From the IMG/VR virus record IMGVR_UViG_2693429774_000004, positions 1-15,490 of that record: DNA of 15,490 bases; one strand, 5' to 3'. Made by a program: the position numbers and the translations under genes. This document shows positions 981 through 14,669 of this stretch, one piece after another; the stretch's first letter is position 1, and each line of letters starts with the position of its first letter. The notes under the pieces were generated by a model, which saw nothing but the letters and a program-made list of their open reading frames with translations, did not search any database and was not told the origin of the DNA. This DNA comes from a virus. Its lineage: Duplodnaviria; Heunggongvirae; Uroviricota; Caudoviricetes.

Positions 981-1678
981 AAAACATCGCCGCACAGATG
1001 GTTAACTTTGACCGTGAGCAGATGCGTCGGATCGCCAACAACATGCCGGAACAGTACGACGAAAAGCCACAGGTACAGCAGGTAGCGCAGATCATCAACG
1101 GTGTGTTCAGCCAGTTACTGGCAACTTTCCCGGCGAGCCTGGCTAACCGTGACCAGAATGAACTGAACGAAATCCGCCGCCAGTGGGTGCTGGCTTTCCG
1201 GGAAAACGGGATCACCACAATGGAACAGGTTAACGCTGGAATGCGCGTAGCCCGTCGGCAGAATCGACCATTCCTGCCATCACCCGGGCAGTTTGTCGCC
1301 TGGTGCCGGGAAGAAGCATCCGTTACCGCCGGGCTGCCAAACGCCAGCGAGCTGGTTGATATGGTTTACGAGTATTGCCGGAAGCGCGGGCTGTATCCGG
1401 ATGCAGAGTCTTATCCGTGGAAATCAAACGCGCACTACTGGCTGGTTACCAACCTGTATCAGAACATGCGGGCCAATGCGTTGACTGACGCGGAATTACG
1501 GCGCAAGGCTGCCGATGAACTGTCCTGTATGACCGCACGAATTAACCGTGGTGAGGCTATACCTGAACCAGTAAAACAACTTCCTGTCATGGGCGGTAGA
1601 CCTCTAAATCGTGCACAGGCTCTGGCGAAGATCGCAGAAATCAAAGCTAAGTTTGGGCTGAAAGGAGCAAGGGTATGA
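977..1678 (+). CDS. Replication protein P (DnaB helicase loader), lambda gpP homolog, full length
   Basis: 233-aa ORF MKNIAAQMVNFDREQMRRIANNMPEQYDEKPQVQQVAQIINGVF...AKIAEIKAKFGLKGARV is near-identical to lambda P from memory. Start overlaps the O stop; stop overlaps the ren start. Confidence 0.9.
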   Translation: MKNIAAQMVNFDREQMRRIANNMPEQYDEKPQVQQVAQIINGVFSQLLATFPASLANRDQNELNEIRRQWVLAFRENGITTMEQVNAGMRVARRQNRPFLPSPGQFVAWCREEASVTAGLPNASELVDMVYEYCRKRGLYPDAESYPWKSNAHYWLVTNLYQNMRANALTDAELRRKAADELSCMTARINRGEAIPEPVKQLPVMGGRPLNRAQALAKIAEIKAKFGLKGARV

Positions 1679-1977
1679 CGGGCAAAGAGTCAATTATTCA
1701 TTACCTGGGGACTCATAAGAAATTCTGTGCGCAGGACGTTGCCGCGGTAACAGGCGCAACGGTAACCAGCATAAATCAGGCTGCGGCTAAAATGGCGCGG
1801 GCAGGAATCCTAGTCGTTGATGGTAAGGTCTGGCGAACGGTGTATTATCGGTTCGCTACCAGAGAAGAATGGGAAGGAAAGGTGAGCACGAATTTGATTT
1901 TTAAGGAGTGTCGCCAGAGTGCCGCGATGAAACGGGTATTGAGGGTATATAAAAGAACATCAATGGGTACACAATGA
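1675..1977 (+). CDS. Ren-like protein (lambda Ren homolog) with altered C-terminus
   Basis: MTGKESIIHYLGTH...VWRTVYYRFATREEWEGKVSTNLIFKECRQSAAMKRVL matches lambda Ren. The last ~12 residues differ because the AT-rich island starts near 1945. ATG overlaps the P stop (ATGA). Confidence 0.8.
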   Translation: MTGKESIIHYLGTHKKFCAQDVAAVTGATVTSINQAAAKMARAGILVVDGKVWRTVYYRFATREEWEGKVSTNLIFKECRQSAAMKRVLRVYKRTSMGTQ

Positions 1978-2044
1978 TGAAACAGGTGAGTTGAGTTCAA
2001 ACTGTAGTACAATTCTCTCCAGTTTGAACAGGAAAGAATATGCT

Positions 2045-2377
2045 ATGAACCCTTATATTTATCTTGGTGGTGCAATACTTGCAGAGGTCATTGGTACAAC
2101 CTTAATGAAGTTTTCAGAAGGTTTTACACGGTTATGGCCATCTGTTGGTACAATTATTTGTTATTGTGCATCATTCTGGTTATTAGCTCAGACGCTGGCT
2201 TATATTCCTACAGGGATTGCTTATGCTATCTGGTCAGGAGTCGGTATTGTCCTGATTAGTTTACTGTCATGGGGATTTTTCGGCCAACGGCTGGACCTGC
2301 CAGCCATTATAGGTATGATGTTGATTTGTGCCGGTGTGTTGGTTATTAATTTATTGTCACGAAGCACACCACATTAA
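2045..2377 (+). CDS. emrE: Small multidrug resistance (SMR) efflux transporter EmrE
   Basis: Internal Met of the 1991..2377 ORF gives the 110-aa protein MNPYIYLGGAILAEVIGTTLMKFSEGFTRLWPSVGT...LLSRSTPH, recognised as EmrE, with four hydrophobic helices and the conserved membrane-embedded Glu in helix 1. Confidence 0.95.
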   Translation: MNPYIYLGGAILAEVIGTTLMKFSEGFTRLWPSVGTIICYCASFWLLAQTLAYIPTGIAYAIWSGVGIVLISLLSWGFFGQRLDLPAIIGMMLICAGVLVINLLSRSTPH

Positions 2378-2406
2378 AATAATTTGTTTCTAAACGACTA
2401 AAATAT

Positions 2407-2450
2407 GGAGGCTCTTATATTTATATGAGCCTCGTTTTATGCTTTTTGTT
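2407..2450 (+). terminator. Probable intrinsic terminator downstream of emrE
   Basis: GGAGGCTC (2407-2414) pairs with GAGCCTC (2427-2433) around a 12-nt AT loop, followed by GTTTTATGCTTTTTGTT. Confidence 0.5.
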
Positions 2451-2631
2451 AATGTCTTTATTTTTTATGTATTCTTTTGTGCTTTCAAGATTATGGCGTA
2501 AGAAAATTGCAATACGATTATTGTTGTATATTCAAGATAATGTGACCTTAATTGTCTTTTTAAATAAAAATTAAACAAAAATTATATCCCACCACTAAGG
2601 TTTATAAAAGCATACGTTAGCAGGTGTCACC

Positions 2632-4158
2632 ATGAAAAAAGCCATAGCATATATGCGATTTTCATCACCAGGTCAGATGTCTGGTGACTCATTAAACCGA
2701 CAGAGAAGACTTATTGCTGAATGGTTAAAGGTAAATAGTGATTATTATCTTGATACCATAACATATGAAGATTTAGGATTAAGTGCATTCAAAGGAAAGC
2801 ATGCACAATCAGGAGCTTTTTCGGAATTTTTAGATGCTATAGAGCATGGTTATATATTGCCAGGAACTACATTGTTAGTTGAAAGTCTGGACAGACTTTC
2901 AAGAGAAAAAGTCGGTGAAGCGATTGAACGTCTGAAATTGATTTTGAATCACGGTATTGATGTTATAACTCTTTGCGACAATACAGTCTATAATATTGAC
3001 TCTTTGAATGAGCCATATTCATTAATAAAAGCCATACTTATAGCACAAAGGGCAAATGAAGAAAGCGAGATAAAGTCAAGTCGGGTTAAATTATCATGGA
3101 AGAAAAAACGGCAGGATGCAATGGAATCAGGTACGATTATGACGGCGTCTTGTCCGAGATGGCTCTCCTTAGATGACAAAAGAACGGCTTTTGTTCCAGA
3201 CCCCGACAGGGTGAAAACTATTGAGCTAATTTTTAAACTCAGGATGGAAAGGCGCTCATTGAATGCAATAGCCAAGTATTTAAATGATCATGCTGTAAAG
3301 AATTTCTCAGGAAAAGAAAGTGCATGGGGACCTTCTGTAATTGAAAAATTATTAGCGAATAAAGCTCTGATAGGTATATGCGTACCTTCATATCGTGCAA
3401 GAGGGAAAGGGATAAGTGAAATCGCTGGCTATTATCCCAGAGTTATATCAGATGATTTGTTTTACGCTGTACAGGAAATTCGGTTGGCACCTTTTGGTAT
3501 TAGCAATAGTAGCAAGAATCCTATGCTAATAAATCTACTTCGAACAGTTATGAAGTGTGAGGCTTGTGGTAATACCATGATTGTTCATGCGGTATCTGGA
3601 AGTTTGCATGGCTATTATGTTTGTCCGATGAGAAGATTACATCGATGTGACAGGCCATCAATAAAAAGAGATTTGGTTGATTATAATATCATTAATGAAT
3701 TGCTTTTTAATTGTAGCAAAATTCAACCAGTTGAAAACAAGAAAGATGCTAATGAAACTTTAGAGTTAAAAATTATTGAGCTTCAGATGAAAATTAATAA
3801 TTTAATCGTTGCATTGTCTGTCGCGCCTGAAGTTACCGCTATAGCAGAGAAAATAAGACTATTAGATAAGGAATTACGAAGGGCTTCGGTATCATTGAAA
3901 ACTTTGAAGAGTAAAGGTGTAAATTCATTCAGTGATTTTTATGCTATTGACTTAACCAGTAAAAATGGACGAGAGTTATGCCGTACACTTGCCTATAAAA
4001 CATTCGAAAAAATCATAATTAATACGGATAATAAAACCTGTGATATCTATTTTATGAATGGCATTGTTTTTAAACACTATCCTTTAATGAAAGTAATATC
4101 CGCCCAGCAGGCGATAAGTGCTCTCAAATATATGGTTGATGGTGAGATTTATTTCTAA
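2632..4158 (+). CDS. ybcK: Large serine recombinase (resolvase/invertase-type catalytic domain, recombinase domain, zinc ribbon, C-terminal coiled coil)
   Basis: 508-aa ORF. N-terminus AIAYMRFSSPGQ fits the serine-recombinase active-site motif (Y-x-R-x-S). Cys cluster CEACGNTM...YYVCPMRRLHRCD resembles the zinc ribbon of large serine recombinases. Lys/Glu-rich C-terminal segment. Low-GC coding. Confidence 0.88.
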   Translation: MKKAIAYMRFSSPGQMSGDSLNRQRRLIAEWLKVNSDYYLDTITYEDLGLSAFKGKHAQSGAFSEFLDAIEHGYILPGTTLLVESLDRLSREKVGEAIERLKLILNHGIDVITLCDNTVYNIDSLNEPYSLIKAILIAQRANEESEIKSSRVKLSWKKKRQDAMESGTIMTASCPRWLSLDDKRTAFVPDPDRVKTIELIFKLRMERRSLNAIAKYLNDHAVKNFSGKESAWGPSVIEKLLANKALIGICVPSYRARGKGISEIAGYYPRVISDDLFYAVQEIRLAPFGISNSSKNPMLINLLRTVMKCEACGNTMIVHAVSGSLHGYYVCPMRRLHRCDRPSIKRDLVDYNIINELLFNCSKIQPVENKKDANETLELKIIELQMKINNLIVALSVAPEVTAIAEKIRLLDKELRRASVSLKTLKSKGVNSFSDFYAIDLTSKNGRELCRTLAYKTFEKIIINTDNKTCDIYFMNGIVFKHYPLMKVISAQQAISALKYMVDGEIYF

Positions 4159-4356
4159 ATAATGATCTCGGATTTTAAGTTATGCTATGGTGATAAAGTG
4201 CAAGACAGAATTAATTATCTTTGACGAAACTTAATGGGTAATTACTTTGTTTGCTCCCACAAGCGAGTTTTGTACGGCTGTATTGGGGTAGTAAATGAGC
4301 TATACAATCTTAATCATTTGTTAGGTGAGAACTCTTGGTCGCAGATTCAAATACTG

Positions 4357-4406
4357 AAAATACGTGACAAATTATTATGAGCAAAATGGTGTATGTCACG
4401 TATTTT
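4357..4406. promoter_or_regulatory. Perfect 13-bp inverted repeat (AAAATACGTGACA / TGTCACGTATTTT) with 24-bp spacer in the ybcK-ybcL intergenic region
   Basis: Arms at 4357-4369 and 4394-4406 are exact reverse complements. Sits about 220 bp upstream of the ybcL start. Candidate operator or RNA stem-loop. Confidence 0.4.
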
Positions 4407-4622
4407 GAATGGTAGGTTAAAAAATAACACCGACTTTCGTAGGTATTACTAATAATAAAGCAGAGTTTTTAGATAGTATCAATGTGCTTTGTGTATATTG
4501 TGGCAAATAATTGGGTTGGGGGTACAATTGTGATTGCTTTTGCATAAACATTGCGCCTTTATGCATAATGAGATAAAGGAATATCAAATAAAATAACGAT
4601 AGGTCATAACAAAGAGGTTTTT

Positions 4623-5174
4623 ATGAAAACACTTATCGTTTCAACTGTATTGGCATTCATAACATTTTCTGCGCAGGCTGCAGCATTTCAGGTCACTAGT
4701 AATGAAATAAAAACAGGAGAGCAACTTACAACGTCTCATGTCTTTTCTGGATTTGGGTGTGAAGGTGGTAATACATCGCCCTCATTAACCTGGTCTGGTG
4801 TTCCTGAAGGTACCAAAAGCTTTGCCGTAACTGTATATGATCCAGATGCACCTACAGGCAGTGGTTGGTGGCATTGGACTGTTGTTAATATTCCAGCAAC
4901 AATAACATATTTGCCCGTTGATGCAGGGAGACGTGATGGAACAAAACTGCCGACTGGTGCTGTTCAAGGCCGAAATGATTTTGGCTATGCTGGGTTTGGT
5001 GGCGCATGTCCTCCTAAAGGAGATAAACCACATCATTACCAGTTTAAAGTATGGGCTCTAAAAACTGAAAAGATTCCTGTAGATTCTAACTCCAGCGGAG
5101 CGTTAGTTGGTTATATGCTTAATGCTAATAAAATCGCAACCGCTGAGATAACACCAGTTTATGAGATAAAGTAG
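4623..5174 (+). CDS. ybcL: Periplasmic PEBP/RKIP-family protein YbcL with signal peptide
   Basis: 183-aa ORF with N-terminal signal peptide (MKTLIVSTVLAFITFSAQAAA) and PEBP-like core (VTVYDPDAPTGSGWWHWTVVNIP...HHYQFKVWAL). Preceded by GAGG. Confidence 0.9.
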   Translation: MKTLIVSTVLAFITFSAQAAAFQVTSNEIKTGEQLTTSHVFSGFGCEGGNTSPSLTWSGVPEGTKSFAVTVYDPDAPTGSGWWHWTVVNIPATITYLPVDAGRRDGTKLPTGAVQGRNDFGYAGFGGACPPKGDKPHHYQFKVWALKTEKIPVDSNSSGALVGYMLNANKIATAEITPVYEIK

Positions 5175-5183
5175 GGTGAGAGT

Positions 5184-5981
5184 ATGCTGGCAAGAGGTAA
5201 GACTAACTTAAAGATCGAAGAAATACGGATGCATAAACATCATGAGATTCATAGGGTTAAGCCTCTTATGCCAGCTTTGTGTCGTATCCGTCAGGGAAAG
5301 AAAGTTATCAATTGGGAGACGCATACTTTAACTGTTGATAATAATCAAATAATATTATTTCCTTGTGGTTATGAATTTTATATTGAGAATTATCCTGAAG
5401 CAGGGCTTTATCTTGCAGAAATGCTTTACTTACCCATTGATTTAATTGAGAGTTTCCAAAAACTTTATACGGTAACTGATCAAATACGTAACAAAACAAG
5501 TTTCTTTTTACCTCAGAATCCTGAGTTAATATATTGTTGGGAGCAACTAAAAACATCTGTTTCCCGAGGCTTCTCAACTAAAATTCAGGAGCACTTAGCA
5601 ATGGGCGTTCTACTTTCGTTAGGAGTGAATCATGTTAATCATTTACTTTTATCATATAGTAAACAATCATTGATAAGTCGTTGTTATAACCTGCTGCTAT
5701 CCGAACCCGGCACAAAATGGACAGCAAACAAGGTTGCTCGATATCTCTACATTTCTGTTTCTACATTACATCGCCGTCTAGCAAGCGAGGGGGTAAGTTT
5801 CCAAAGTATACTGGACGATGTGAGGTTAAATAATGCGTTGTCTGCTATACAAACGACGGTAAAACCTATAAGCGAGATTGCCAGAGAAAATGGTTATAAG
5901 TGTCCTTCTCGTTTTACTGAAAGATTTCATAATCGTTTTAATATAACACCAAGAGAGATAAGAAAAGCTTCCAGAGAGTAA
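5184..5981 (+). CDS. ybcM: AraC/XylS-family transcriptional regulator
   Basis: 265-aa ORF with a C-terminal AraC-type double helix-turn-helix ([21 protein letters not shown]...[32 protein letters not shown]). Low-GC coding. Confidence 0.85.
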
Positions 5982-6045: not shown

Positions 6046-6074
6046 GTCACCGGAGCCTGAACAACTCCGGTGAC
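6046..6074 (+). terminator. Stem-loop at the right boundary of the AT-rich island (possible weak terminator of ybcM)
   Basis: GTCACCGGAG (6046-6055) pairs perfectly with CTCCGGTGAC (6065-6074) around a 9-nt loop, followed by TTCTGCG, only a weak U-tract. Confidence 0.3.
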
Positions 6075-8094: not shown

Positions 8095-8262
8095 TTAAAA
8101 ATGGGGCGTTGAAACGCCCCCAAAAATAAAGGGTAATATATAACAGAAGGTTTGTATAGTTAGAAGCAAGGTTGTGCTTCTAAAGGAAGTGGCTTGAGGG
8201 AGCCACTTATATGTTGGGGAGGCAAAGCCTCCCACAACATATCTTTTAGTAATCAAATTAGA
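8095..8262 (-). ncRNA. ipeX: Candidate small RNA from the nmpC 3' region (possibly IpeX-like), ending at a minus-strand intrinsic terminator
   Basis: On the minus strand the 8103-8120 hairpin is followed by ATTTTTAATAAC, a canonical terminator about 140-160 nt past the nmpC stop. I recall an sRNA named IpeX mapping beside nmpC in DLP12, but I cannot confirm its exact coordinates or strand from memory. Confidence 0.3.
8103..8247 (+). promoter_or_regulatory. Cluster of four stem-loops between quuD and nmpC: candidate late-promoter leader/qut region with terminator
   Basis: Stems at 8103-8120 (GGGGCGTT/AACGCCCC), 8162-8181 (AGAAGCA/TGCTTCT), 8187-8208 (AAGTGGCT/AGCCACTT) and 8211-8240 (ATGTTGGGGAGGC/GCCTCCCACAACAT, one bulge). 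The last is followed by ATCTTTTAG on the plus strand. Confidence 0.4.
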
Positions 8263-9340
8263 ACTGGTAAACCATACCTACAGCAACGATATCATCGGTA
8301 GCAACGCCAGATGCTTTCGTGAAATCGCTCTTATCAATCAGGTTGATTTTGTAGTCAACAAAAGTGGACATATTTTTGTTGAAGTAATAGGTTGCACCTA
8401 CATCAACATATTCAACCAGGTCCTGATCACCCCAAACACCCAAGTCTTTTCCTTTAGAATGCAGGTAAGCAACGGATGGACGCAGGCCGAAGTCGAACTG
8501 ATATTGTGCAACAGCTTCGAAGTTTTGTGCTTTGTTGGCAATATGGTTATTACCAAAAACAGTCATGTTCTGGGTTTCAGAATAGGTGGTGGCCAGATAG
8601 ATGTTGTTCGCATCATATTTCAGACCAGCTGCCCATACTTCAGCATTTTGACCAGAAGCATTCAGACCGTTGTTACCGTAGATAACCTGATTATTAGTGC
8701 GATCAGATTTAGCATAGGTTGCACCTACACCGAATCCTTCATACTCATAAGTAGTGGAGAAACCGAAACCATCACCATTAGCTTCAGTTACGTCAGTGCG
8801 GTCATTTTTACCCTGATACTGAGCAGCAAAGTTCAGACCATCAACCAGACCAAAGAAGTCGTTGTTACGATAAGTTGCAACACCAGTGGTGCGACCAGTC
8901 ATGAACACATCTGTTTGAGTCCAAGTGTCACCACCGAATTCTGGCAGGACGTCAGTCCACGCACCGATGTCGTATGCTACACCGTAGTTACGGCCGTAAT
9001 CGATGGAGCCGTAGTCACCGAATTTCAGGCCAGCGAAGGCAAGACGGGTTTTATCTTTGGAGGAACCTTGAGATTCAGCGCGGTTGCCTTTGAATTCATA
9101 TTCCCACTGACCGAAACCAGTCAGTTGATCGTTGATTTGGGTTTCACCTTTGAAGCCAAGACGGGCATAAGTAGTATCACCATCATCTGCATCATTAGAG
9201 GAGAAGTAGTGCTTAGCATTAACTTTCCCGTACAGATCCAGCTTGTTACTGTCTTTATTATAAATTTCAGCTGCCTGAGCAGACATCGCCATCAGTACTG
9301 ATGCAGCTACAGCAGAAATTGCCACTGTTAATTTTTTCAT
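8258..9340 (-). CDS. nmpC: Outer membrane general porin NmpC (OmpD/OmpC family), apparently intact
   Basis: 360-aa ORF with signal peptide [23 protein letters not shown], porin-typical Gly/Tyr/Asp-rich beta-strand composition and the conserved C-terminal motif VGMVYQF. Confidence 0.92.
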
Positions 9341-9928
9341 CGTGAGCCCTTTTTTTTGAACTATTATTAAAAAATGATGTCACTGCGCGATAAATATTCA
9401 TCTAATCAATGTGATTATTTCAAGATGTAAGTTTTAGTTTCTCATTTAATTTGTGAAGTAGATCTCTATTTTTATCTGAACTTTTTCTATCGAAACCTAT
9501 TTATGGCTCTTATTTGAACAAAAATAAACCTATTAGCTAATTTATATTAATGGCTGTTATTTATGGGGGGTCTATAATTCGATGGTTTAATTTAAATTAA
9601 CTAAAAATAACGCCGGAAATTATTTATTGGTTATTTGTTGAGGTTTTCTTATGTATTTGTGGTGGTGTTTTGAACACTCGGTAGCATTCTCATAAATATC
9701 ATTCAGTGGTTTACGTACGTAAAAAATTGGTTATGCTGTTAAGAGTGGTTACTTCGTCACACAGCTTAAACCCGCCGTCGAGCTGGTTTTTCCATTTTTT
9801 GAGTCTCGATATTAGCTGATAACTCAATACCTGAGTTATTCACTGACTCCGAGTCTGTTACGTTTCTGCTTTTTTGCGATACGTTGTATTCCCTCAATTT
9901 ACACCCGCTTTGTCTGCGAGGTGGGGTT

Positions 9929-10144
9929 ATGAAATCCATGGATAAGTTAACAACGGGTGTCGCCTATGGCACCTCAGCAGGTAGTGCCGGTTACTGGTTT
10001 TTACAGCTGCTCGATAAAGTCACGCCCTCACAGTGGGCAGCAATAGGTGTGCTGGGTAGCCTGGTATTTGGCCTGCTGACGTACCTGACAAACCTTTATT
10101 TCAAGATTAAAGAAGATAAGCGCAAGGCTGCGAGAGGTGAATAA
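9929..10144 (+). CDS. essD: Class II holin / pinholin (phage 21 S-like) with dual-start motif
   Basis: 71-aa protein [71 protein letters not shown]. Met1 and Met4 give the classic antiholin/holin dual start; two TMDs. The ORF track starts at an upstream in-frame Met. Stop overlaps the rrrD ATG. Confidence 0.9.
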
Positions 10145-12192: not shown

Positions 12193-12369
12193 CGCGGGTT
12201 TTCGCTATTTATGAAAATTTTCCGGTTTAAGGTGTTTCCGTTCTTCTTCGTCGTAACTTAATGTTTTTATTTAAAATACCCCCTGAAAAGAAAGGAAACG
12301 ACAGGTGCTGAAAACGAGCTTTTGGGCCTCTGTCGTTTCCTTTCTCTGTTTTTGGCCGTGGAATGAACA
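12193..12369 (+). other. cosB region (terminase small-subunit binding sites and IHF site) between cosN and the nohD start
   Basis: Position and near-identity to the first ~180 nt of the lambda left end. Individual R3/R2/R1 sites not mapped. Confidence 0.6.
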
Positions 12370-14088: not shown

Positions 14089-14669
14089 TGGCATTCAGAA
14101 TGAGTGAACAAGCACGGACCATAAAAATTTATAATCTGCTGGCCGGAACTAATGAATTTATTGGTGAAGGTGACGCATATATTCCGCCTCATACAGGTCT
14201 GCCAGCAAACAGTACCGATATTGCACCACCAGATATTCCGGCAGGCTTCGTGGCTGTTTTCAACAGTGATGAGGCATCGTGGCATCTCGTTGAAGACCAT
14301 CGGGGTAAAACGGTTTATGACGTGGCTTCCGGCGACGCGTTATTTATTTCTGAACTCGGTCCGTTACCGGAAAATGTTACCTGGTTGTCGCCGGGAGGGG
14401 AATATCAGAAGTGGAACGGCACAGCCTGGGTGAAGGATACGGAAGCAGAAAAACTGTTCCGGATCCGGGAGGCAGAAGAAACAAAAAACAGCCTGATGCA
14501 GGTAGCCAGTGAGCATATTGCGCCACTTCAGGATGCTGTAGATCTGGAAATCGCAACGGAGGAAGAAACCTTGTTGCTGGAAGCCTGGAAAAAGTATCGG
14601 GTGTTGCTGAACCGTGTTGATACATTAACTGCACCGGATATTGAATGGCCAGTAGCACCTATAGGGTAA
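14088..14669 (+). CDS. tfaD: Tail fibre assembly protein Tfa
   Basis: 193-aa [57 protein letters not shown]... near-identical to lambda Tfa from memory. ATG overlaps the stf stop (TAATG). Confidence 0.9.

Follow-up and report, generated by a model that had tools for sequence, protein, structure and literature searches.

The region between ybcK and ybcL of a DLP12-type prophage contains a perfect 13-bp inverted repeat (positions 4357–4406 of the window, i.e., the whole 15,490-nucleotide stretch of viral DNA analyzed here) that is a genuine feature, lacks annotation, and is restricted to one prophage lineage. The repeat lies close to the right edge of a segment carrying ylcJ and ybcK, and it is most likely an element of an ordinary kind, a hairpin at the end of a phage moron, in non-canonical form. 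Morons, as defined in phages HK97 and HK022, are accessory genes with their own promoter and a factor-independent terminator that are inserted between genes adjacent in related phages. We tentatively propose that the repeat closes the ylcJ-ybcK transcript as a weak terminator-like or 3′-end-protecting hairpin; termination or protection is what we infer from the sequence and predicted fold, the location inside an indel, and where the neighboring promoters lie. The first-pass annotation, made from the letters alone, had placed the repeat in the control of ybcL. This assignment is corrected here: the promoter and the start site of ybcL-ybcM both lie downstream of the repeat.

The RefSeq annotation of the matching region identifies the window as a DLP12-type lambdoid prophage with the gene order replication gene P, ren, emrE, ylcJ, ybcK, ybcL, ybcM, ylcH, ybcN, ninE, ybcO, rusA, ylcG, quuD, nmpC/ompC, essD, and rrrD. 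In window coordinates, emrE ends at 2377, followed by ylcJ (2425–2574), ybcK (2632–4158, plus strand), ybcL (4623–5174), and ybcM (5184–5981). The ybcK product is a 508-aa large serine recombinase with the Pfam domains Resolvase, Recombinase, and Zn_ribbon_recom (PHROG 95, “integrase”), and residues R9, S11, and Q15 of its catalytic motif do not vary across the family. YbcL belongs to the PEBP family, and YbcM is a regulator of the AraC family. PADLOC defence models returned no matches to YbcK, YlcJ, YbcL, or YbcM. The host prophage itself integrates by a tyrosine integrase, IntD, at argU. The 464-bp ybcK-ybcL intergenic region, at 33% G+C, matches both the E. coli RM14723 chromosome and the inducible phage PhiR70_1 at 100% identity, and K-12 MG1655 at 99.6%. 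Farther along the window, a 10-bp perfect repeat lies downstream of ybcLM (6046–6074), and nmpC has a canonical terminator at 8120–8103.

The arms of the repeat, AAAATACGTGACA (4357–4369) and TGTCACGTATTTT (4394–4406), are exact reverse complements separated by the 24-bp spacer AATTATTATGAGCAAAATGGTGTA (4370–4393), as the first-pass annotation had described. The arms cannot be extended in either direction, and the spacer is devoid of dyad symmetry (3/12 positions, i.e., chance level), so that the symmetry is confined to two half-sites with centers 37 bp, or 3.5 helical turns, apart. The repeat begins 199 bp past the ybcK stop codon and leaves 93 bp between its right end and the ybcLM −35 box. 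Its significance was assessed with dinucleotide-preserving shuffles of both the 464-bp intergenic region and the whole window. A perfect repeat of at least 13 bp with a spacer of at most 60 bp was reached in 2 of 3000 shuffles of the intergenic region and was contained in 14 of 1000 shuffles of the 15.5-kb window. The original claim that perfect 13-mers do not arise by chance in 460 bp therefore holds as a statement of local rarity. Extrapolating from the window rate, however, a few to several comparable repeats are expected by chance in each 4.6-Mb E. coli genome, and rarity alone is thus no proof of function.

Sequence variation around the repeat says little. Among 46 related sequences, the left arm is invariant, and the 464-bp intergenic region contains 18 variable sites, none of which falls within 4323–4411. 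The probability of zero variation is about 0.13 for the 50 bp of the repeat and 0.02 for the 89-bp gap, an interval that was picked after viewing the data, and the absence of polymorphism is only weak evidence of constraint. Searches against Rfam at gathering and at permissive thresholds gave only chance hairpin-like matches.

Comparison across E. coli places the repeat inside a discrete indel. In 2631 of 5426 complete genomes, emrE lies directly next to ybcL-ybcM and the ylcJ-ybcK segment is missing. In these empty loci, such as that of ETEC1749, which are typically located between fliE and yedK, 168 bp separate emrE from ybcL-ybcM. Alignment of empty loci with the window matches to position ~2384 and becomes unambiguous again from ~4465. 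The missing plus-strand segment of ~2.04 kb (2382–4416, with a right edge between 4416 and 4464) comprises ylcJ, ybcK, and the 258–306 bp that follow ybcK, including the repeat, which sits 10–58 bp inside the right edge. A short direct repeat marks both ends: the left copy, TTAAAATAA, occupies 2373–2381, and the right copy, TTAAAAAATAA, occupies 4417–4427 and begins 10 bp past the right arm. Empty loci retain a single copy, TTAAAAAATAA. Two histories fit this arrangement, namely an insertion in the DLP12 lineage or a loss elsewhere by slippage between the direct repeats. In either case, ylcJ, ybcK, and the tail form a discrete 2-kb indel within the emrE-ybcLM accessory block of DLP12-type prophages.

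The repeat-bearing form occurs in 675 E. coli genomes, always in the same context, and near-identical copies are also present in three phage records, 39 viral contigs, and about 22 metagenome contigs. Over a 161-bp region around the repeat, all 675 copies are at least 98% identical, a uniformity that precludes a covariation or conservation test. The first-pass annotation had named conservation across strains as a check; the repeat is near-identical in its 675 carriers and absent from the 2631 emrE-ybcLM loci. The 258-bp tail has no homologue elsewhere in the databases searched. A third arrangement retains ylcJ and a ybcK with an in-frame deletion of 30 aa, loses homology to the window at ~4167–4199, and continues into an antirepressor fragment with no repeat; the tail and ybcK thus do not always go together. 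Two further leads were set aside. The indel junctions were used to reconstruct a terminal inverted repeat or att dyad, but its local alignment score was not significant (149/2000 shuffles); the sequence AATAATTTGT at 2378–2387 does recur inverted at 4367–4376, and TGTCACG lies in the last codons of emrE. Environmental contigs that match the arm pattern carry full palindromes of the form TTGTCACGTA(A/T)TACGTGACAA, in pairs and in high-G+C genomes. The E. coli site does not possess the outer halves of these palindromes, and we regard the match as coincidental.

The capacity to form a hairpin, which the first-pass annotation had raised as one of its two options, is borne out by the predicted fold. 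The minimum free energy structure of the plus-strand RNA (4352–4414) extends the 13-bp stem by five outer base pairs (4352–4356 with 4410–4414) and by an inner helix of 6 bp, in which 4373–4378 pairs with 4386–4391, three of the pairs being G·U, and closes a 7-nt loop. At −18.9 kcal/mol (z = −3.2), this fold is stable, and it still forms when 262 nt (4159–4420) are folded together. The minus strand reaches −14.9 kcal/mol (z = −3.8) with a loop that stays open. The perfect stem contains only four G-C pairs in its 13 bp, all of them within a 9-bp core, and is opened by AAAA and closed by UUUU, after which the sequence continues GAAU. A T-rich tail, TTTTGAAT (4403–4410, plus strand, five T in eight positions), overlaps the base of the stem and is mirrored by the A-tract at 4357–4360.

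Intrinsic terminators combine a G+C-rich stem of ~5–14 bp with a loop of 3–8 nt, rarely exceeding 13 nt, and a U-tract directly after the stem. The repeat possesses the U-tract, with TTTTGAAT satisfying the T-tract rule of a terminator scan. Its 24-nt loop lies outside the canonical range and is reduced to 7 nt only through the G·U-rich inner helix together with a 3×2 internal loop, and its stem is moderately AT-rich. These features count against a terminator, and the consensus scan rejected the repeat on its loop limit of 3–8 nt.

The location of the hairpin between two transcription units argues for a role at the end of the first. Genomic SELEX with RpoD holoenzyme identified a sigma-70 promoter for ybcK, GTGACC-17-TAAAAA (2542–2570, plus strand), a call that reports binding rather than activity in vivo, and a constitutive promoter for ybcLM in the intergenic region, GTGGCA-17-TACAAT (4500–4528, plus strand), the repeat lying between these two units (PMC3946193). 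As we envisage it, the ylcJ-ybcK transcript would have the repeat as its final structured element. The plus-strand RNA would then present the 13-bp stem, lengthened by 5 bp at its base and 6 bp at its top, with an A-tract on the 5′ side and UUUUGAAU on the 3′ side. Such a hairpin could stop or slow transcription begun at the ybcK promoter ahead of the separate ybcLM promoter, or it could shield the 3′ end of the ybcK mRNA. If it terminates, its effect on ybcL would be limited to insulation from upstream read-through. The resulting layout of promoter, gene, and hairpin would be that of a phage moron.

Several observations favor this 3′-end hairpin. The fold is stable and unusual on both strands, with five T in eight positions and AAAA/TTTT ends on the arms. 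Of the features that define a moron, the segment shows the location between genes that are adjacent elsewhere, emrE and ybcL in the 2631 genomes above, and a promoter of its own as judged from SELEX binding. Other accessory units in the window, ybcLM and nmpC, likewise end in hairpins (6046–6074 and 8120–8103, respectively). Evidence against it comes from the ybcK variant with the 30-aa deletion, which keeps ylcJ-ybcK and has no repeat, and from RNA 3′-end mapping. In the accessible portions of the Term-seq (PMC7815308) and TRS (PMC10687069) tables, no RNA 3′ end is found near U00096.3 570676 (5704xx–5707xx), and the only ybcK entry is an internal 3′ end at 568940. For a region that is poorly expressed and was scored as H-NS-associated in the SELEX study, the missing 3′ end in these portions is weak negative evidence.

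Nearly as likely as the moron-end hairpin is a neutral origin, a possibility we take seriously: the repeat might be a functionless quasi-palindrome that arose by chance or mutation in poorly expressed, AT-rich DNA of horizontal origin. Imperfect palindromes can be made perfect by template-switch correction as DNA replicates. The shuffles of the window (14/1000) extrapolate to several such repeats per genome, so that some will turn up in any scan of many windows. The repeat is confined to one nearly clonal sequence family, and no independent lineage has kept it; nor is there an equivalent beside YbcK homologues at 38–61% identity. One contig tolerates an IS1 element inserted 36 bp to the left of the repeat. 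Furthermore, no transcript end or start site in the available parts of the mapping tables, and no Rfam family, maps to it. Against neutrality stand the local rarity of the repeat (2/3000 shuffles), the lack of polymorphisms across 4323–4411, and its position between two transcription units, with A and T tracts on its flanks that chance alone would not call for.

A third explanation, which we consider improbable, is that the 50-bp dyad serves YbcK as an attP-like or autoregulatory DNA site, in which case an int-attP cassette would reside inside a prophage that integrates through the tyrosine integrase IntD. The overall size of ~50 bp, the outer symmetry, and the adjacency to a recombinase gene resemble attP sites such as that of phiC31. 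The recombinase retains all three domains of its family and an intact catalytic motif, and the dyad (4357–4406), symmetric only in the outer 13 bp of each half, lies 199 bp from its gene. Moreover, the repeat is never found without ybcK and is missing from ybcLM loci that have no ybcK, and a perfect repeat with a ~25-bp spacer elsewhere in the window, cosB R2/R1, serves protein binding in these phages. The internal structure of the dyad fits a recombinase substrate poorly, however. Its outer symmetry of 13/13 contrasts with chance-level agreement in the inner 24 bp (3/12), and its exact center at 4381–4382 is a palindromic GC and would confer no polarity, an objection that applies only if crossover is exactly central.

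The surroundings of the dyad and of YbcK homologues weigh further on the negative side. No second copy or half-site beyond chance was detected in the window or in a 10.5-kb flank from a phage record, and the indel junctions rebuild no dyad. Among 17 loci of YbcK homologues (37–60% identity), no consistent dyad was found, the flanks not being alignable. Homologues at 37–61% identity are either passengers of nin regions (L006, L091) or lie next to tRNA 3′-end sequences at the ends of prophages (L185, L187). Durrant et al. (PMC10083194, cluster10915) predicted an att pair for the YbcK family with a shared 26-bp core, a common core of a kind typical of tyrosine integrases. That core resembles the att core of a tyrosine integrase residing in the same element, and the pair therefore says nothing about YbcK’s own site. 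Taken together, the evidence leans against the dyad being a YbcK site. This is nevertheless the only reading of wider interest: if true, DLP12-type prophages would carry a second, silent cassette of serine integrase and att site beside their tyrosine integrase, and the orphan ybcK of K-12 would gain a substrate, possibly as a native integrase-site pair.

The proposal of the first-pass annotation that the repeat acts as an operator upstream of ybcLM, bound by the AraC-family protein YbcM or by a host factor that regulates these genes, is very unlikely. In its favor, the repeat does lie in the ybcK-ybcL intergenic region, an AraC-type regulator is encoded two genes downstream, and the region was bound by RNA polymerase and scored as H-NS-associated in SELEX (PMC3946193). 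The position of the ybcLM promoter and start site speaks against it. Cappable-seq (PMC4782308) reports, in the available part of its table, a plus-strand start at 570094 in U00096.2. Taking the intergenic region as ~569652–570115 in U00096.2, this start corresponds to window position ~4601, 21 nt before the ybcL ATG, and the same part of the table lists no plus-strand start between 568538 and 570094. The repeat thus lies 93 bp upstream of the −35 box and, by the start listed there, 195 bp upstream of the ybcL start, hence outside the leader. Promoter and mapped start are both located downstream of the repeat, in DNA common to loci without it, including the 2631 genomes that have ybcLM and its promoter; the repeat is therefore neither an operator nor a leader hairpin of ybcL, and, judged from genome content, ybcLM can do without it in about half of the E. 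coli genomes examined. In addition, a half-site distance of 37 bp without inner symmetry (3/12) does not fit a simple dimeric operator. Operators of the phage’s own repressor were also considered and rejected, the arm motif not being found on inspection of the cI-cro operator region (L001, 863–968).

Two smaller features noted alongside the repeat fare little better as elements of ybcL control. The 12-codon mini-ORF MSKMVYVTYFEW is present as described (plus strand, 4377–4415, ATG at 4377, stop codon at 4413–4415), but no Shine-Dalgarno sequence precedes its ATG (GTGACAAATTATT), and a G>A change at 4412 converts its Trp codon TGG to TGA and shortens it in 7 of 46 related sequences. We judge it not to be a gene. 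A leader peptide or attenuator was rejected on the same features together with its location upstream of the ybcL start site. A 48-aa ORF at 4234–4380, annotated in phage records and ending in an ATGA that overlaps the mini-ORF start, was also not retained as a gene; it belongs to no PHROG family and has homologues only in the same three phage records. None of the local small ORFs tested had a family match. The second palindrome, TGCATAAA (4541–4548) and TTTATGCA (4558–4565), likewise exists, at about −60 to −36 of the ybcL start mapped by Cappable-seq, but its 8 bp are the norm in shuffles and it is polymorphic. In 27 of 45 relatives the palindrome is disrupted by a G at position 4546, position 4549 also varies, and only TGCAT/ATGCA is kept in paralogous emrE-ybcL loci. 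If either palindrome touches ybcL control, this weak and polymorphic one is the better placed.

The least probable alternative is a minus-strand promoter with the right arm as −35 (GTGACA) and the spacer as −10 (AATAAT), which would yield an RNA antisense to the ybcK 3′ region: the match at 4371–4399 (GTGACA-17-AATAAT) reaches 10/12 with a 17-bp spacing in a promoter scan, but the window contains no more such matches than its shuffles (33 versus 33.7), no start numbered 5698xx appears in the available part of the Cappable-seq table (PMC4782308), and no plausible minus-strand ORF or RNA family was found.

These results separate the repeat from a gene that has attracted attention in its own right. 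YbcL has been studied in uropathogenic E. coli. For ybcK, which is an intact large serine recombinase gene in K-12, the repeat is the only candidate cis site beside it.

Comparison with known systems delineates how far the 3′-end hairpin of ylcJ-ybcK resembles established elements. In phage lambda, the sib/tI retroregulation hairpin lies downstream of int. Likewise, the recombinase gene ybcK is followed, after a few hundred bp, by a long hairpin, whose full stem, with the outer 5 bp that require 4410–4414, would form only in read-through transcripts. We offer this as pure analogy, one that does not extend to RNase III cleavage or differential read-through. Another counterpart is found within the window itself: the R2/R1 sites of lambda cosB, bound by the small terminase subunit gpNu1, occupy 12289–12345 as perfect 16-bp arms around a 25-bp spacer. 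Their geometry is almost identical to that of the repeat at 4357–4406, whereas the sequences are unrelated, and cosB is annotated in phage records together with its named binding protein, while the repeat has no known ligand. With the attP sites of large serine integrases such as phiC31 and Bxb1, the repeat shares a length of ~50 bp, the strongest symmetry in its outer parts, and a place beside a recombinase gene. It differs from them in its asymmetric inner half-sites, its GC center, and its lack of a known partner site or product, and the prophage here uses a tyrosine integrase at argU.

Other parallels exist among elements at transcript ends. Like bidirectional intrinsic terminators, the repeat has a symmetric AAAA-stem…stem-TTTT organization and is stable on both strands; in contrast to them, it has no convergent minus-strand gene, a far longer loop, and no mapped 3′ end in the accessible portions of the Term-seq and TRS tables. 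The favored reading draws on phage morons. The ylcJ-ybcK hairpin departs from the canonical moron terminator in its 24-nt loop, its moderately AT-rich stem, and its run of only four consecutive U, and the direction of the event is either insertion here or deletion between the TTAAAA(AA)TAA repeats elsewhere. In line with a moron, however, ylcJ-ybcK lies between emrE and ybcL, has a SELEX-supported promoter, and carries a T-tract hairpin near the edge of the segment.

The 2.04-kb segment carrying ylcJ and ybcK is bracketed by short direct repeats, TTAAAATAA at window positions 2373-2381 and TTAAAAAATAA at 4417-4427, and loci that lack the segment hold a single copy (positions 4925-4945 of the compared locus L086). 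As judged from sequence, two histories are compatible with this arrangement: insertion of the segment, with target duplication or at a microhomology, or its loss by slippage deletion. Within the segment, ybcK also occurs in a variant form. Two E. coli contigs, L088 and L089, match window 1598-4199 and encode a protein of 478 aa that lacks 30 aa through an in-frame deletion (window 3171-3250). From around window 4167-4199, the DNA 3' of this variant is replaced by a C-terminal fragment of a P22 antirepressor, and the prophage that holds it has gam and recT genes. Other copies of the region are interrupted: contig L110 (10745-11381) carries an IS1 copy with its breakpoint at window 4321, 36 bp left of the 4357-4406 inverted repeat, and the alignment of contig L121 is broken within ybcK and ybcL, at window 3533 and 4696-4699, possibly by insertions.

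Homologues of the large serine recombinase YbcK lie in diverse surroundings in other genomes. A lambdoid nin region (L091) encodes a homologue with 59% identity, enclosed together with KGG-domain and dinI genes by a 181-bp direct repeat (5671-5851 and 8651-8831), both copies of which represent the 5'-terminal part of a DUF1367 gene and share 86% identity at the DNA and 97% at the protein level. The sequence suggests that the block entered via recombination inside the DUF1367 gene. In Ewingella and Yersinia, the homologues are located at prophage ends and directly adjoin tRNA 3'-end sequences (L187, ca. 10090-10130; L185, ca. 9700-9765). Since these tRNA ends are typical att cores of tyrosine integrases, the serine recombinase appears to be carried as cargo and not to act as the integrase of the prophage. 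In Citrobacter koseri (L188, 6145-9530), a homologue with 50% identity is divergently oriented beside the gene for a 555-aa protein, whose sole domain match is a faint Shufflon_N, and TraD and MobA genes are present in the same region. A large-scale recombinase catalogue (PMC10083194, supplementary file 3) includes a YbcK-family enzyme as cluster10915 (class 'Other', 103 members). The attB and attP sites predicted for it have a 26-bp core, ACAGGAATCGTATTCGGTCTCTTTTT, in common. This core resembles an att core that belongs to a co-resident tyrosine integrase; its assignment to the YbcK family is probably a mis-assignment.

Further potential RNA structures flank the genes of the window. Directly 3' of emrE, the hairpin GAGGCTC-N12-GAGCCTC, followed by GTTTTATGCTTTT, spans 2408-2432; because the start codon of ylcJ (2425) falls within it, the hairpin may sequester the ylcJ ribosome-binding region or, as a second role, act as emrE terminator. 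A perfect 10-bp inverted repeat, GTCACCGGAG-N9-CTCCGGTGAC, with a weak T-tract lies 65 bp 3' of ybcM (6046-6074) and is likely the end-of-unit hairpin of ybcLM. A full-length Rfam match (227.9 bits) at 14431-14629 corresponds to IS009 (RF02111), a candidate small RNA originating from K-12 intergenic screens.

The arm pattern of the 4357-4406 repeat is also matched by ca. 20 unrelated environmental metagenome contigs, most of them high-G+C, including L143, L144, L145, L155, L159-L161, L165, L166, L169-L171, L175, L134, and L132. There, the pattern makes up the inner half-sites of a pair of full palindromes, TTGTCACGTA(A/T)TACGTGACAA, that are intergenic and spaced ca. 45 bp centre to centre. 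Every spacer and flank differs, and no common theme was seen among the adjoining genes. The paired palindromes resemble a protein-binding site or repeat element conserved in another bacterial group. Immediately upstream of nohD, two 16-bp arms in the window, AGAAAGGAAACGACAG and CTGTCGTTTCCTTTCT (12289-12304 and 12330-12345), form a perfect inverted repeat around a 25-bp spacer. Long-spacer perfect repeats of the window can be protein-binding sites, with this pair serving as positive control: to within 1 bp, it coincides with the gpNu1-binding sites R2 and R1 annotated in cosB of phage 434.
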